Shown here one piece after another: positions 24,356 through 64,000 of a DNA stretch of 64,000 nucleotides (positions are counted from its first letter, which is position 1; each line of letters opens with the position of its first letter). The notes beneath the pieces were generated by a model, which worked only from the letters and a program-made list of their open reading frames with translations, was not told the DNA's origin and searched no databases. The stretch is taken from assembly GCF_056712565.1 (NCBI RefSeq), contig NZ_CM160072.1; one strand, 5' to 3'. Position numbers and translations under genes: made by a program.

Positions 24356-25117
<762 letters not shown>

Positions 25118-25150
25118 CTATCCACGGGACGATCCCCTGCGTGACATTCA

Positions 25151-25175
25151 CATATATGAAAAAATCGTGCCAGTT
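25151..25175 (-). promoter_or_regulatory. Putative sigma-54 promoter glnHp2
   Basis: Minus-strand reading aactggcacgattttttcatatatg contains TGGCAC-N5-TTTCA, close to the -24/-12 consensus TGGCAC-N5-TTGCA. Confidence 0.45.
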
Positions 25176-25245
25176 TTGCAACTCATTGATTTTTCGAGAT
25201 GCGGCAAGAACGTGATGCACGATTTATAGGGCAATATCCTGAAGA

Positions 25246-25277
25246 TGCACCATTCTGGGGCACCAAACTGGTGCGCT
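25246..25277. promoter_or_regulatory. Putative NtrC binding sites upstream of glnHp2
   Basis: tgcaccattctggggcaccaaactggtgcgc contains overlapping TGCACCA / TGGTGC half-sites. Confidence 0.4.
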
Positions 25278-25436
25278 AAAATTGTGCACTCAACACAGTG
25301 ATTATTTAGCGTAAAACCTGATGAAAAAACAATCTTTATGTAACGATTGTGTGATGATGTGGATACAAAAAATTTACTTAACCAGCTGGGGATAGCAGAT
25401 GGATGCACTAAATAAGTGCGTTGAGGCGGGCTACAA

Positions 25437-25475
25437 AACAAAACGGCCTCCTGTCAGGAAGCCGCTTTTATCGTG
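25437..25475 (-). terminator. Putative rho-independent terminator downstream of dps
   Basis: Imperfect hairpin ggcctcctg/caggaagcc flanked by A-run and T-run. Confidence 0.35.
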
Positions 25476-25505
25476 TACTAAAGTTCTGCACCATCAGCGA
25501 TGGAT

Positions 25506-26153
<648 letters not shown>

Positions 26154-26271
26154 TTAGATATATTGATAAGAACAATTCTTATTTATTTGCTCGCTAGGAA
26201 TTTTCGGAATAAATATGCTTTTGCATAATTCGATATATAAAGACGGTGTAGAGGAAAAGTAGCGAGAAAAT

Positions 26272-26297
26272 CTGCATGGTTATGCATAACCATGCAG
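26272..26297. terminator. 26-bp perfect palindrome immediately downstream of rhtA (probable rhtA terminator, within the dps upstream region)
   Basis: ctgcatggttatgcataaccatgcag; followed on the minus strand by a T-rich run. Confidence 0.4.
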
Positions 26298-26307
26298 AAA
26301 TGTAAAT

Positions 26308-27195
26308 TTAATTTATGTCTAATTCTTTTATTTTGCTCTCTTTGCGTACTGTCAGCGTAGAACCCATTGAAGCGGCGATGATAGCGCCGAGCGCCAGCAG
26401 CTGTATGGGTGTCAGTGTTTCTCCGAGGAAAATCATCCCGGAAACGGCAGCCAGCGCCGGTTCCATGCTCATTAGCGTACCAAATGTGCGTGTTGGCAAA
26501 CGGGTGAGGGCAATCATTTCCAGCGAATAAGGCAGAGCGGTCGAGAGAATAGCGACAGCCAGACCCAATGGAATAACCGACCAGTGCCAGAGTGCTTCAC
26601 CAGCCTGAAGCGCTCCAATTGGCACGAAAATTAACGCTGCAATCAACGAACCAATTGCCACCGTCGCAGGACCATGTTCCGCTCCAGCGCGTTGCCCACT
26701 TAAAATGTAAATAGCCCAACAAGCCCCGGCCCCCAGTGCCAGTGCACAGCCGGTTAAATCGACATGGGAAACGTCTTGCCCCAGCGGTAGCAGGAACCAT
26801 AGACCAAGAACCGCCAGCACAACCCAGACGAAATCTACCGGGCGACGAGAAGAGAACAGTGCCACCGCCAGTGGTCCGGTGAACTCCAGCGCCACCGCTA
26901 TACCCAGCGGTACCGTCTGAATAGAAAGATAAAAAAGATAATTCATTCCACCCAGCGAAACGCCGTAAAACAACAGCGGTAATCGTTGCTCTTTGGCAAA
27001 GCGCAGTCGCCATGGCTTAAAGAACGCGATGAGGATCAGCGTGCCTAATGCCAGACGCAGCGCAGTGACCCCCGGTGCGCCCACCAGAGGAAAAAGTGAC
27101 TTAGCTAACGAGGCTCCACCCTGAATAGACGCCATGGCAACGAGCAATATGACTATTGGTAACCAGACCGGCATTTTACGTAATGAACCAGGCAT
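26308..27195 (-). CDS. rhtA: Threonine/homoserine exporter RhtA (DMT family, 295 aa)
   Basis: Start trimmed to MPGSLRKMPVWLPIVILLVA; polytopic membrane protein. Confidence 0.92.
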   Translation of the reverse strand: MPGSLRKMPVWLPIVILLVAMASIQGGASLAKSLFPLVGAPGVTALRLALGTLILIAFFKPWRLRFAKEQRLPLLFYGVSLGGMNYLFYLSIQTVPLGIAVALEFTGPLAVALFSSRRPVDFVWVVLAVLGLWFLLPLGQDVSHVDLTGCALALGAGACWAIYILSGQRAGAEHGPATVAIGSLIAALIFVPIGALQAGEALWHWSVIPLGLAVAILSTALPYSLEMIALTRLPTRTFGTLMSMEPALAAVSGMIFLGETLTPIQLLALGAIIAASMGSTLTVRKESKIKELDIN

Positions 27196-27547
27196 CCTTT
27201 CTCCCACAAATATCTAAACCTAAGTAAAGCGTGGAGTGTACTGGATATACCCAATGCTGGTTGAGCATTTGTTGAAAAAATTTTCCCCCGTTTTGACTAA
27301 AATGCGCCAGGATTGATGGAATCATTAGTCTGGTGATTAGGAATAATCTGGATGAATGACAGGGAAAACATGCGTAATACTTACGCAGTTCTCTGAAAAA
27401 GTGATTTAAATTTAGATGGATAGCGGTGTATGGAAACGTTCTGTTACATGAAATGGTCCGTTAGACATCATAAATCGCGAAGAGTTTCCCATTAATTTTT
27501 GATATATTTAAAACTTAGGACTTATTTGAATCACATTTGAGGTGGTT

Positions 27548-28063
27548 ATGAAAAAAATTGCATGTCTTTCAGCACTGGCCGCAGTTCTGGCTTTCACCGC
27601 AGGTACTTCCGTAGCTGCGACTTCTACTGTAACTGGCGGTTACGCACAGAGCGACGCTCAGGGCCAAATGAACAAAATGGGCGGTTTCAACCTGAAATAC
27701 CGCTATGAAGAAGACAACAGCCCGCTGGGTGTGATCGGTTCTTTCACTTACACCGAGAAAAGCCGTACTGCAAGCTCTGGTGACTACAACAAAAACCAGT
27801 ACTACGGCATCACTGCTGGTCCGGCTTACCGCATTAACGACTGGGCAAGCATCTACGGTGTAGTGGGTGTGGGTTATGGTAAATTCCAGACCACTGAATA
27901 CCCGACCTACAAACACGACACCAGCGACTACGGTTTCTCCTACGGTGCTGGTCTGCAGTTCAACCCGATGGAAAACGTTGCTCTGGACTTCTCTTACGAG
28001 CAGAGCCGTATTCGTAGCGTTGACGTAGGCACCTGGATTGCCGGTGTTGGTTACCGCTTCTAA
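27548..28063 (+). CDS. ompX: Outer membrane protein X (171 aa)
   Basis: Signal peptide MKKIACLSALAAVLAFTAGTSVA and beta-barrel ending in aromatic residue (GVGYRF). Confidence 0.95.
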   Translation: MKKIACLSALAAVLAFTAGTSVAATSTVTGGYAQSDAQGQMNKMGGFNLKYRYEEDNSPLGVIGSFTYTEKSRTASSGDYNKNQYYGITAGPAYRINDWASIYGVVGVGYGKFQTTEYPTYKHDTSDYGFSYGAGLQFNPMENVALDFSYEQSRIRSVDVGTWIAGVGYRF

Positions 28064-59311: not shown

Positions 59312-60544
59312 ATGCAAAATAAATTAGCTTCCGGTGCCAGGCTTGGACGTCAGGCGTTACTTTTCCCTCTCTGTCTGGTGCTTTACGAATTTTCAACCTA
59401 TATCGGCAACGATATGATTCAACCCGGTATGTTGGCCGTGGTGGAACAATATCAGGCGGGCATTGATTGGGTTCCTACTTCGATGACTGCGTATCTGGCG
59501 GGCGGGATGTTTTTACAATGGCTCCTGGGGCCGTTGTCGGATCGTATTGGCCGCCGTCCGGTGATGTTGGCGGGAGTGGTGTGGTTTATCGTCACCTGTC
59601 TGGCAATATTACTGGCGCAAAACATTGAACAATTCACCCTGTTGCGCTTCTTGCAGGGCATAAGCCTCTGTTTCATTGGCGCTGTGGGATACGCCGCAAT
59701 TCAGGAATCCTTCGAAGAGGCCGTTTGTATCAAGATCACCGCGCTAATGGCGAACGTGGCGCTGATTGCTCCACTACTTGGTCCGCTGGTGGGCGCGGCG
59801 TGGATCCATGTGCTGCCCTGGGAAGGGATGTTTGTCTTGTTTGCCGCATTGGCAGCGATCTCCTTTTTCGGTCTGCAACGAGCTATGCCTGAAACCGCCA
59901 CGCGTATAGGCGAGAAACTGTCGCTGAAAGAACTCGGTCGTGACTATAAGTTGGTGCTGAAGAACGGCCGCTTTGTGGCGGGGGCGCTGGCGCTGGGATT
60001 CGTTAGCCTGCCGTTGTTGGCGTGGATCGCCCAGTCGCCGATTATCATTATTACCGGTGAGCAGTTGAGCAGCTATGAATATGGCTTGCTGCAAGTGCCT
60101 ATTTTCGGGGCGTTAATTGCGGGTAACTTGCTGTTAGCGCGTCTGACCTCGCGCCGCACCGTACGTTCGCTGATTATTATGGGCGGCTGGCCGATTATGA
60201 TTGGTCTGTTGGTCGCTGCTGCGGCAACGGTTATCTCATCGCACGCGTATTTATGGATGACCGCCGGGTTAAGTATTTATGCTTTCGGTATTGGTCTGGC
60301 GAATGCGGGACTGGTGCGATTAACCCTGTTTGCCAGCGATATGAGTAAAGGTACGGTTTCTGCGGCGATGGGGATGCTGCAAATGCTGATCTTTACCGTC
60401 GGTATTGAAATCAGCAAACATGCCTGGCTGAACGGGGGCAACGGACTGTTTAATCTCTTCAACCTTGTCAACGGCATTTTGTGGCTGTCGCTGATGGTTA
60501 TCTTTTTAAAAGATAAACAGATGGGAAATTCGCACGAAGGGTAA
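59312..60544 (+). CDS. mdfA: Multidrug efflux MFS transporter MdfA/Cmr (410 aa)
   Basis: Start trimmed to [20 protein letters not shown]; 12-TM MFS. Confidence 0.95.
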
Positions 60545-60548
60545 AAAA

Positions 60549-60577
60549 ATGCCTGATTGCTTTGTGCGATCAGGCAT
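60549..60577. terminator. Putative bidirectional terminator between convergent mdfA and ybjH
   Basis: Inverted repeat atgcctgat...atcaggcat preceded by an A-run. Confidence 0.4.
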
Positions 60578-60584
60578 TCTCGAA

Positions 60585-60851
60585 TTAATGGTGATGGTCG
60601 TCAATCTGGTGTTCGATAACCATCCCTTCACCTACGCTGGCAAGATGGCGAACATAAGGATGCGGGCGGTAAGCCGGAGCTGGCGCAGGAGCCACATAGA
60701 CGGTTTGCGGCACAGTCGCGACGCTGACTGAATCAGGAACCACAACCACTTTGTATCCACTCGGCACATCGACGGTGACACTTTGCGCCATCGCCACACC
60801 AGTAAAGCCCATTAAAAGCGCGCCCAACAGTAGACAATTTTTCATAATCAT
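60585..60851 (-). CDS. ybjH: YbjH, small secreted protein of unknown function
   Basis: Signal peptide MIMKNCLLLGALLMGFTGVAMA; start choice uncertain (ORF track extends 15 codons upstream); C-terminal His-rich tail. Confidence 0.6.
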   Translation of the reverse strand: MIMKNCLLLGALLMGFTGVAMAQSVTVDVPSGYKVVVVPDSVSVATVPQTVYVAPAPAPAYRPHPYVRHLASVGEGMVIEHQIDDHHH

Positions 60852-60935
60852 TTCGCCTGAAATAATGCAGCGGGTTAATTTCCGCGAATTATGCAATCTT
60901 CATTCAGGCATTGTGTTGCCGGGCGTGCTGCCGTT

Positions 60936-61751
60936 TTATTGGTTAAATGGCGCTTCGTGTTTAAGCACTTTATCGATCACATCCAGTACGCCTTCACGGT
61001 TATTGGAGCCTGCCCGGTATTTTGCCGCTGCGACGACCGCGCTGCCGGCATTTTCCATTGCAAAACTAAAGCCTGCCTGACGCAGCATCTCAATATCGTT
61101 ACCGCCATCGCCAAAGACCACCACTTCGCTGTCGTCTATTCCCCATAATTTCTGCAGTTGGCGAAGGCCATTGGCTTTATGTACACCGGGGATAATCAGA
61201 TCGATGCTGCCGTTGCCGGTATGGACCGGTACCATGATATCGCCGATGGCCTCATGTAATGCTTTTTGCACTTGTGGGATCAGTTCGTCAGAGAGATTAA
61301 GGCCAAATTTAAAGAAGATATCTTCTAAGTTGTCAAAGTTATCGACGTATTCCAGACGGTGATAATACATTTCCGCCACCGTTTTCATGGCATCGTCATA
61401 TTTTTTGAGGGTATAGGCGCTATTTTTTCCGCAGGCAATAATTTCCACTTCCGGGCGCGTCAGCAAATGTTCTACGACAGTAGTAAACGCATCCTTCGAC
61501 AGCTCGCCATTAAAAACATCTTTGCCTTCGCTCACTACCCAGCCGCCGTTTTCAGCCACAAAGGCAATTTCATTAGCAATTTCAGGAAAGAAAGAGATCA
61601 ACTGATAATATTGATTCCCGCTGGCGACCACAAAGCGAATGCCTTGTGCTTTCATTTGCTGATACTGAGCCATAAACCGCTCACGGTTATAGGTTTTTTG
61701 ATCGCTTAAGAAAGTACCATCCATGTCTACCGCAATTAATTTAATGCTCAT
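60936..61751 (-). CDS. ybjI: HAD-superfamily phosphatase YbjI (Cof type, 271 aa)
   Basis: Start at second Met ([15 protein letters not shown]); strong paralogy to ybiV. Confidence 0.92.
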   Translation of the reverse strand: MSIKLIAVDMDGTFLSDQKTYNRERFMAQYQQMKAQGIRFVVASGNQYYQLISFFPEIANEIAFVAENGGWVVSEGKDVFNGELSKDAFTTVVEHLLTRPEVEIIACGKNSAYTLKKYDDAMKTVAEMYYHRLEYVDNFDNLEDIFFKFGLNLSDELIPQVQKALHEAIGDIMVPVHTGNGSIDLIIPGVHKANGLRQLQKLWGIDDSEVVVFGDGGNDIEMLRQAGFSFAMENAGSAVVAAAKYRAGSNNREGVLDVIDKVLKHEAPFNQ

Positions 61752-62959
61752 CAACTATTCTCCATCGCCGTCTGCGTTTTGGTATCGGGTTTGGCGACGG
61801 CTTTCGCGACAATAGCCGCGAGAATAACCAGCGCCAGTACAACCAGCATTGCACTACGTAATCCATAATGTTCGCCGAGATAGCCCAGCAGCGGCGGCCC
61901 GACGAGGAAAGCCAGATAACCGGTCGTAGCTACCACGCTGACGCGGGTTGGTGCATCGGGGCCGGTATCGCTGGCGGCAGAAATAGTCAGCGGGAAGCCC
62001 AACGAGGCACCCAGTCCCCAAAGTACAACAGACACCCCAGCGACCCAGGCGCTATCGACAAAAATAATCAGCCCAATACCCAACGCCCCCATTAGTGCAC
62101 TGGCCCGAACCACGGCAACGCGACTGTAACGGTCAATGAACCAACCGCCGGTAAAGCGTCCAACGGTCATCCCCAGGGTAAAACCGGCATAAATCAGCGA
62201 GCCGGAAGTAGGGCTAAAACCGTGACCATCAACCATTAATAAGGGTAACCAGTCGTTGGCAGAACCTTCGGCAAAGGCCATCGCCAGCACCACAACACCA
62301 ATCAACAGCAACTGGATATCCCGATAAAAAGGTACGCCTTTTTCACCATGCTGGGTGCCATCGGCAGCATTTTTGCCCGTACCGTCAGGGATTGCCTGAA
62401 TGGCGATATAAATAGGTGCGATGCCTACCAGCGCCGCCAATAAAATATGCACCGTTGCCGGAACGCCAAAGGCCGTCAGTGCCATCCCGACACCTGCGCC
62501 TGCCAGCGTGCCCAGGCTATAAAAACCGTGCATCATCGGTAAAACCGTCTTATTCATTTCTCTCTCAACGGCGGCACCTTCAACGTTTATCGCCACTTCC
62601 GCAGAACCAAAACTAGCCCCAAAGACGCCGAGACCAACGGCAAAGAGCAAGGGCGATGTCAGCCAGAGTGCCAGACTTAATATCATCATCCCAATCAATG
62701 CGCAGGACATCGTCACAAGGATGACATTACGCGTCCCAAAGCGTTTCACTAACCACGCCGAGCAGAGAATACCGCTCATCGAACCGATCGACAGACCAAA
62801 GAGAACACCGCCCATTTCAGCGATCGAGACAGAGAGAATATCGCGGATAGCAGGCGTACGGGTTGCCCAGGACGCCATTAACAGGCCTGGCAAAAAGAAG
62901 AACATAAACAGCGCCCAGGTTCGGCGTTTCAATGCATTACGTGAAGAATTTACGGTCAT
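61751..62959 (-). CDS. ybjJ: MFS transporter YbjJ (402 aa)
   Basis: Start trimmed to [20 protein letters not shown]; 12-TM MFS. Confidence 0.9.
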
Positions 62960-63042
62960 AGACCACGTCAAAATAAGAAGAGGGAAGACAACATTAGCAA
63001 GACTGTGTACATTTGTACACAATTGCAGAGAGAGGAAATGAC

Positions 63043-63579
63043 ATGCGTCGCGCTAACGATCCGCAACGGCGAGAAAAAATTATCCAGGCCACGCTGGAGG
63101 CGGTGAAACTTTACGGAATACATGCTGTTACACACCGCAAAATTGCTACCCTTGCCGGGGTGCCGTTGGGATCGATGACCTACTATTTTTCAGGAATTGA
63201 TGAGTTGTTGCTGGAGGCGTTCAGCCGTTTTACTGAGATCATGTCCCGGCAATATCAGGCATTTTTTAGCGATGTTAGTGATGCTCCAGGCGCATGCCAG
63301 GCTATCACCGATATGATCTACAGCTCACAGGTCGCAACGCCGGATAATATGGAGCTGATGTACCAGCTCTACGCGCTGGCTAGCCGAAAACCGCTCTTAA
63401 AAACGGTAATGCAAAACTGGATGCAGCGCAGTCAACAAACGCTCGAACAATGGTTTGAACCCGGAACCGCCCGCGCGCTTGATGCGTTTATTGAGGGAAT
63501 GACGCTGCATTTTGTCACCGACCGTAAGCCGCTATCACGCGAGGAGATTTTGAGGATGGTTGAGAGGATTGCTGGGTAG
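63043..63579 (+). CDS. rcdA: TetR-family transcriptional regulator RcdA/YbjK (178 aa)
   Basis: Start trimmed to [20 protein letters not shown]; TetR HTH. Confidence 0.9.
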
Positions 63580-63627
63580 TAGATAAATTTCAGGCAACAA
63601 AAAAACCATTTATGTAAACGGGTTAAT

Positions 63628-63665
63628 GAAAACAATAAGTTAGATTAAAAACAATAAGTTAGGTT
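63628..63665. repeat. Tandem direct repeat (2 x ~18 bp) between rcdA and the integrase stop
   Basis: aaaacaataagttagatt followed directly by aaaaacaataagttaggtt; AT-rich. Confidence 0.45.
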
Positions 63666-63683
63666 GGTGGTCAGTGGTGGTTA

Positions 63684-64000
63684 TTACGGGGTAATGCCAA
63701 CCGCTGCCGCCACTTTGTCGCCACTTGGCAGCGTTGCCAGAGGATTGAAACGGAGCGCCGTTTCCAGATGATCCGGTGCCAGATGTGCGTAACGCATAGT
63801 CATTTTTATATCGTGGTGTCCGAGAATTTTTTGTAAGGCCAGAATGTTTCCACCCGACATCATGAAGTGCGCCGCAAACGTATGGCGCAGAACGTGTGTG
63901 AGTTGACCGCGAGGGAGCACGATAGACGTTTTTTCCATCACGGATAAAAATTGAAAATAGCAGTCTGTGAAGAAATTGAACCCATCAAGCGCCATGATCT
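63684..64000 (-). CDS. Phage-type tyrosine recombinase (integrase), C-terminal catalytic part only; gene continues beyond the window end
   Basis: Minus-strand translation ...LTHVLRHTFAAHFMMSGGNILALQKILGHHDIKMTMRYAHLAPDHLETALRFNPL... carries the conserved HxxR box and the RY(A)H tyrosine nucleophile motif of the integrase family; it resembles P2-family integrases (from memory, unverified). Confidence 0.8.
   Translation of the reverse strand, partial: IMALDGFNFFTDCYFQFLSVMEKTSIVLPRGQLTHVLRHTFAAHFMMSGGNILALQKILGHHDIKMTMRYAHLAPDHLETALRFNPLATLPSGDKVAAAVGITP

Follow-up and report, generated by a model that had tools for sequence, protein, structure and literature searches.

The window (the whole stretch of 64,000 nucleotides from contig NZ_CM160072.1 analysed here) passes near its right-hand end from a host gene into an integrase gene. 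The last host gene before the junction is rcdA (ybjK), located on the plus strand at 63043-63579 with a TAG stop codon at 63577-63579 and recognized from the list of open reading frames as well as from the rcdA annotation of matching genomes and K-12. Past an intergenic gap of 104 bp (63580-63683) we encounter the end of a minus-strand reading frame, with its stop codon at 63684-63686, that stays open up to the edge of the window, just as a preliminary description made from the sequence had it. That description had also given a K-12 layout in which rcdA is followed by rybB and ybjL without an integrase; this is indeed the order in MG1655, where rcdA is separated by 20 nt from rybB (minus strand), with ybjL next in line. 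Finally, it had compared an int gene aimed at the host junction to the left ends of P2-like and other prophages, and the same arrangement is found in P2, 186 and Fels-2.

The visible part of the int gene (63684-64000, minus strand) encodes the C-terminal 104 residues (247-350) of a 350-residue tyrosine integrase, the remainder of which lies beyond the window. The fragment is 100% identical in protein sequence to residues 247-350 of WP_000290937.1, a 'phage integrase', and suffices on its own to match the Pfam family Phage_integrase (PF00589, E 1.3e-11). The full-length protein of a relative shows an Int_N domain (PF24624, E 1e-31) along with PF00589 in two pieces, and matches the integrase family phrog_1 (E 6e-75). 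The closest solved structure is the catalytic domain of HP1 integrase (PDB 1AIH, E 6.5e-58), to which the catalytic-box residues all align; PDB entries 5C6K and 5DOR, deposited as 'Integrase' and which we take to be P2 integrase, match at 2e-47 and 7e-37, respectively. Both motifs to which the preliminary description had drawn attention are present in the translation, HxxR as THVLRHT and GHxxIxMTxRYAH as LGHHDIKMTMRYAHL. The catalytic residues have been kept: box II (His-x-x-Arg, HVLR) is encoded at 63885-63896, with His281 at 63894-63896 and Arg284 at 63885-63887, the second conserved histidine (His307, LGHH) at 63816-63818 and the catalytic Tyr316 (RYAH) at 63789-63791, all on the minus strand and all aligned with the same residues of 1AIH. 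Arg207 (TGARW) and the beta-hairpin lysines (TKGKKNR) fall beyond the window and were seen in the gene of relatives, which is identical over the shared part. Comparison with the integrase families that had been proposed as relatives yields 56% identity to 186 Int, 54% to Fels-2 Int and 39% to P2 Int. The reading frame is, by these homologies, a tyrosine integrase of the HP1/186/P2 subfamily with putative activity on the att sites described below.

Between rcdA and the integrase gene, little is left of rybB. An Rfam scan of 60000-64000 with E values up to 10 did not return RybB. The matches returned across this interval (CRISPR-DR, snoRNA and miRNA models, E 1-6) are at chance level, and the same goes for CRISPR direct-repeat matches at 63728-63751 within the int coding sequence (E about 1-5, far under gathering scores). 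What the window does contain is a vestige of the 3' end of rybB at 63599-63609 (minus strand), made up of the last bases of the terminator stem and the U-tract and corresponding to 11 nt of the annotated K-12 gene, or 14 nt by the Rfam model. As an sRNA this vestige is non-functional. At the attR of a relative RybB is intact (Rfam RF00110, 105 bits), the gene being rebuilt there because attP has the same bases. Taken together, the aligned sequences identify rybB as the attachment target, apparently kept intact at attR and not lost. The overlap between core and gene, the whole rybB at the attR of relatives and the vestige in the window are those of an element that sits in the 3' end of a small-RNA gene and regenerates it.

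What lies to the right of position 64000 can be gauged from closely related genomes. We compared 62900-64000 by megablast with 5,426 complete E. coli genomes, none of which is 100% identical to the window over this interval. The last 25 kb of the window are essentially identical to chromosomes of the ST95 ExPEC/APEC type, and the three closest complete genomes examined, all ST95 ExPEC/APEC, match the last 1.1 kb save for one base. In the best match, NZ_OZ546991.1, position 63605 is the only difference over 62861-64000. In all three (NZ_OZ546991.1, NZ_CP087287.1 and NZ_CP053079.1; the two examined besides NZ_OZ546991.1 are APEC 16-1068 and K56-43-un) a complete P2-family prophage, about 34.6 kb long, begins on its left with the integrase gene. 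Its left part comprises int, a small ORF, cI, a Cox/Apl-like gene (excisionase family phrog_575, E 6e-31), cII, fil, dam, the replication endonuclease gene A, a DinI/Tum-like gene and a cargo slot. This slot is followed by portal, terminase, scaffold and capsid genes (Q P O N M L), lysis genes and a second cargo slot; the right part holds baseplate genes, tail fibres with an invertase, sheath, tube, tape measure, D and ogr. Past ogr the core is repeated, followed by an intact rybB and by ybjL. P2-type gene set and order are complete in each of the three genomes, and the window itself shows only the 3' third of int. The bulk of a prophage thus probably lies to the right of 64000, as had been surmised; an isolated integrase remnant followed by ybjL was seen in none of the three, with degraded versions found elsewhere (BL21-AI, see below).

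The suggestion that this would be a P2-like prophage holds at the level of family, and for an integrase of the P2/186/HP1 subfamily, but not for the prophage body, which resembles Fels-2 and, in nucleotide sequence, is not closely related to P2 or 186: alignment to Fels-2 extends over 71% of the relative's prophage (82% nucleotide identity), alignment to 186 over only 22%. The genus threshold of the ICTV stands at about 70% nucleotide identity over the full length. For Felsduovirus, 71% coverage at a mean of 82% amounts to roughly 58% overall, a borderline figure and one measured on the relative's prophage, not on the window. DNA spanning attL and int is found in 15 records of phage collections at 96.6-98.8% identity; all are P2-family phages or prophages, 14 of the 15 from Klebsiella. 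As an aside, two otherwise identical ST95 prophages differ by inversion of a tail-fibre/assembly segment beside a 'recombinase family' invertase (24475-27949 in L004, the locus of NZ_OZ546991.1, versus 24467-27941 in locus L008), which is consistent with an active invertible host-range segment of the Gin/Cin type.

The occupied site is common. The junction between rcdA and the integrase gene is present in 1,061 of the 5,426 complete genomes and the junction at the other end (ogr-attR-rybB-ybjL) in 1,104, whereas the site is uninterrupted in 4,227. With about 1,060-1,100 occupied sites, about one complete E. coli genome in five has a P2-family prophage here. When we joined the left flank of the window up to the core with the right flank of a relative's attR, the resulting synthetic empty site of 484 nt was found at 100% identity in the sister ST95 strains UTI89, APEC O1, S88 and IHE3034, in NU14 and in others; insertion was therefore precise. 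The att repeat is accounted for on all sides, with attL in the window, attR in relatives and an empty-site allele that consists of left flank, core and right flank. Precise occupied and empty alleles coexist within ST95.

Comparison of attL and attR (L004, L008, L001/L002 and L010) delimits the attachment core, AACAAAAAACCCAT, which in B2 strains extends to 25 bp and takes in the final 11-14 nt of rybB, that is, the end of the terminator stem and the U-tract. In the window, the B2-type core occupies 63585-63609 and reads AAATTTCAGGCAACAAAAAA[A]CCAT; the copy beside rybB at the attR of relatives is the same with C at the bracketed base. In context, attL of the window runs ...gggTAGtagat AAATTTCAGGCAACAAAAAAACCAT ttatgtaaacggg..., and attR of the relatives runs ...aaacatctt AAATTTCAGGCAACAAAAAACCCAT caaccttgaacc..., where the right-hand part is rybB; attR was read in L004 (NZ_OZ546991.1), L008, L002, L009 (BL21-AI) and L010. 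Comparison with BL21-AI and TUM14697 narrows the minimal common core to AACAAAAAA(C/A)CCAT at 63596-63609, the sole identity between attP and an attB of the K-12 type. The sequence to the left of it (63585-63595) differs between hosts: B2 strains, including those with empty sites, have AAATTTCAGGC, K-12 (L005 1966-1976) and BL21 have AAGTTTTAGAT. The B2 version equals the P-arm sequence of the phage, so that in B2 hosts attP and attB are identical over 25 bp instead of 14.

BL21-AI is informative about the position of strand exchange. It has a K-12-type attB (gataagttttagatAACAAAAAACCCAT), the left flank of its attL is likewise of that type, and its attR carries the phage-type aaatttcaggc. The latter sequence, which attL and attR have in common in B2 strains, is P-arm-borne judging from BL21-AI, and B2 empty sites have the same bases. 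Given a K-12-type flank at attL and a phage-type flank at attR, exchange would have to fall inside the minimal core, within AACAAAAAACCCAT (63596-63609). Position 63605, where the window has A and its closest relatives have C in an ungapped comparison, suggests a yet narrower placement. The same A is found at the equivalent attL position of at least five other, unrelated complete genomes, so a sequencing error confined to the window can be dismissed. In one of these genomes, TUM14697, the corresponding base is A in attL and C in attR, as expected if the base derives from the P' side of the phage; the variant looks like a recurrent or phage-borne attP polymorphism. Combining this pattern with the BL21-AI flanks, we infer that exchange takes place within AACAAAAAA (63596-63604).

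The P' arm between core and int stop contains further candidate sites. Two 18-nt direct repeats, AAAACAATAAGTTAG(A/G)TT, lie 19 bp apart at 63629-63665 (plus strand); they are kept in Klebsiella phage 4LV2017 and, within the 39-kb locus of the relative, occur only at attL. We regard them as candidate sites for an accessory protein, either IHF (an 8/9 match to WATCAANNNNTTR, by eye) or an excisionase of the Cox/Apl type. Within the 3' coding region of int, at 63705-63726 (plus strand), there is a tandem pair, TGCCGCCACTT TGTCGCCACTT, that may represent the arm-type Int sites P'1 and P'2. A counterpart on the P arm, TGCCGCCATTT TGTCGCCATCG, lies beside ogr at the attR of NZ_OZ546991.1 (L004 35242-35263) as the same tandem pair in the same orientation. 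The pattern that describes these pairs, TGYCGCCAYTT, resembles the annotated consensus for arm-type sites of 186 Int, YAYCGCCAYTY, keeping in mind that it was derived after the sites had been seen and that its enrichment figure is biased accordingly. On the minus strand, sequence from core and P' arm (63603-63624) might form a hairpin followed by a U-tract, a possible terminator for the int transcript. The case for such a terminator is weak: a simple consensus scan for intrinsic terminators came up empty at attL, and the fold, at -9.2 kcal/mol (z-score -1.8) for the canonical sequence, is weakened by the 63605 variant to -5.0 kcal/mol (z-score -0.3) in the window, no better than shuffled sequence.

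How, then, is the junction best explained? We consider it very likely that 63585-64000 comprises attL (B-O-P') together with the 3'-terminal third of int from a temperate prophage of the P2 family (Peduoviridae, Fels-2-like) inserted at the 3' end of rybB. Such a prophage would have arrived by conservative site-specific recombination, a heterobivalent tyrosine integrase recombining attP with the 3' end of rybB, a sigma-E sRNA gene. Int would be positioned by the candidate tandem arm-type sites (TGYCGCCAYTT, twice on each arm). The products would be the attL seen in the window, beside rcdA, and an attR beside ybjL about 34.6 kb away. For excision, Int would presumably be joined by a bending protein of the host and by the Cox/Apl-like protein whose gene lies just past cI, and by homology a CI/CII/Apl switch together with a DinI/Tum-like gene suggest SOS induction in the style of 186. 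Exchange positions as well as arm-type and accessory sites are comparative inferences in this scheme; completeness and cargo of the prophage are gauged from relatives. The version in this strain is most likely that of ST95: on the left one would expect int, cI, apl, cII, fil, dam, A, the tum/DinI-like gene, a cargo slot and Q P O N M L; on the right, lysis genes, the second cargo slot, baseplate, tail fibres with invertase, tail genes, D and ogr.

Relatives vary in what they carry in the two slots. In NZ_OZ546991.1, the slot between tum and portal (L004 9902-10992) encodes a candidate defence pair, PDC-M35 A/B (an S1 peptidase and its partner, E 4.5e-94 and 4.3e-58), and the slot between S and V (L004 19896-21854) a 652-aa OLD/AriA-like ATPase. 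The slots of K56-43-un hold a KAP NTPase and a RES-domain protein, those of TUM14697 a TIR protein and a DUF4145 protein. TUM14697 also has frameshifts in its D and tape-measure genes. In BL21-AI (NZ_CP047231.1, L009 1000-21800) the rybB prophage at the same site is cut to about 21 kb: cII, A and D are truncated, capsid and tail genes are missing, and there are pseudogenes. Its cargo slot still holds a reverse transcriptase of the retron St85 family and an effector.

These degraded versions raise the question of whether the strain studied here might likewise carry a cryptic remnant, int and part of a prophage, no longer able to produce phage. The deletion in BL21-AI and the frameshifts in TUM14697 are examples of damage at this site, only 284 genomes contain 80% or more of the 25 kb at the left of the ST95 version (much of which is explained by variation in cargo and mosaicism), and the core variant at attL of the window is absent from its nearest relatives. 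On the other hand, in all three closest genomes examined the gene set is whole and no gene of an essential module is flagged as a pseudogene, and across the junction they differ from the window at a single base; moreover, the part of int that can be seen is intact and identical in protein sequence. We therefore judge a remnant to be unlikely. We would rate as a long shot two further departures from a standard prophage, namely that one of the P2-type cargo slots (tum-to-portal or S-to-V) holds an undescribed gene set, or that A at 63605 impairs excision and thereby locks the prophage in place. With C expected at attR, a lock is improbable: other lysogens show the same A/C arrangement, suggesting that 63605 lies outside the exchanged segment.

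Could the integrase instead come from another class of integrative element, such as a phage satellite or a genomic island of non-phage origin, with the same attachment site in rybB? Related integrases can indeed be common to several element types and the window shows nothing of the element except int. Yet every inspected locus with this int has P2-type structural genes, the phage-collection records with the attL-int DNA are P2-family without exception (15 of 15), and a previous survey found the hotspot to be held by Felsduovirus prophages only (PMC10121019), so that an element of this kind is extremely improbable. Virtually no credence attaches to the notion of a chance open reading frame or a host recombinase gene of the Xer type. 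NCBIfam does return XerC, XerD and XerA, along with integron integrases, but every match is below threshold (48-86 bits for the Xer models versus curated cut-offs of 220-335); they reflect a common catalytic box and are uninformative about subfamily. The gene is, in addition, missing from the 4,227 genomes with an uninterrupted site, in which rcdA directly abuts rybB, and structurally its nearest matches are phage integrases (HP1, and 5C6K as presumed P2 integrase). Empty sites, K-12 layout and structural matches refute this notion, and a P2-family prophage at rybB remains the explanation that we favour.

For annotation, the junction marks the point where the core chromosome ends and a prophage of roughly 35 kb begins, and it explains why rybB is missing beside rcdA: the gene has been displaced, not lost. 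The finding is real but ordinary, insertions at this site being common and already described in both E. coli and Klebsiella. Hochhauser, Millman and Sorek (2023) reported a hotspot, #29, held only by Felsduovirus prophages within rybB and occupied in 109 of more than 1,300 genomes, with variable defence cargo in each (PMC10121019). Bobay et al. (2013), whom they cite for rybB, do not mention the gene in their main text. In Klebsiella, Hudson (2014) described a prophage, Kpn38RybB, 'precisely within' rybB (PMC4048246). Variable anti-phage defence genes are a known feature of prophages at rybB, so in this strain it is the sequence past the window that deserves reading. What the comparisons add to the described system is small: an exchange region mapped to about 9 bp, and the candidate arm sites.

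The prophages of hotspot #29 agree with the window in locus (rcdA, rybB-ybjL), type of element and int-first orientation, and the defence-type cargo that relatives of the window carry in two slots fits the same picture; nothing substantive differs, the window having A at 63605 where its nearest relatives have C. Also close is Klebsiella phage 4LV2017 (Elveevirus, KY271398), whose attL-int DNA is 96.6% identical over 410 nt, whose annotated attL, GCAGGCAACAAAAAACCCAT, matches the core of the window, and whose P' arm has the same repeats. 4LV2017 and the island Kpn38RybB of K. pneumoniae target rybB as here, but differ in host genus, prophage body, cargo and the flank to the left of the core (gctaaacg... 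versus ...gataaattt in the window). 4LV2017, which has this int, is classed as Elveevirus; the label used by Hochhauser et al. is Felsduovirus, with which the borderline Fels-2 coverage of the relative's prophage is in line.

Among the classical phages, coliphage 186 (Eganvirus) offers a parallel: its int gene is likewise oriented towards attP downstream of cI, its Int is 56% identical, it too targets the 3' end of a gene for a small structured RNA (the ileY tRNA), which integration restores, and it has in common with the relatives' prophage an excisionase of the Cox/Apl type, a CI/CII/Fil switch and a DinI-like Tum. It differs in its attB (ileY versus rybB) and in orf69, which is found between att and int only in 186. 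Fels-2 and P2 share gene order and most structural and replication genes with the relative's prophage. The Int of Fels-2 is only 54% identical, and the attachment site of Fels-2 is ssrA. In P2, int adjoins att as it does here and Int is 39% identical; P2 uses locI and other sites outside RNA genes. HP1, like the prophage that we propose here, integrates into the 3' end of an RNA gene, in its case a tRNA, and differs from the system in the window in host, in target gene and in the N-terminal domain of its integrase.
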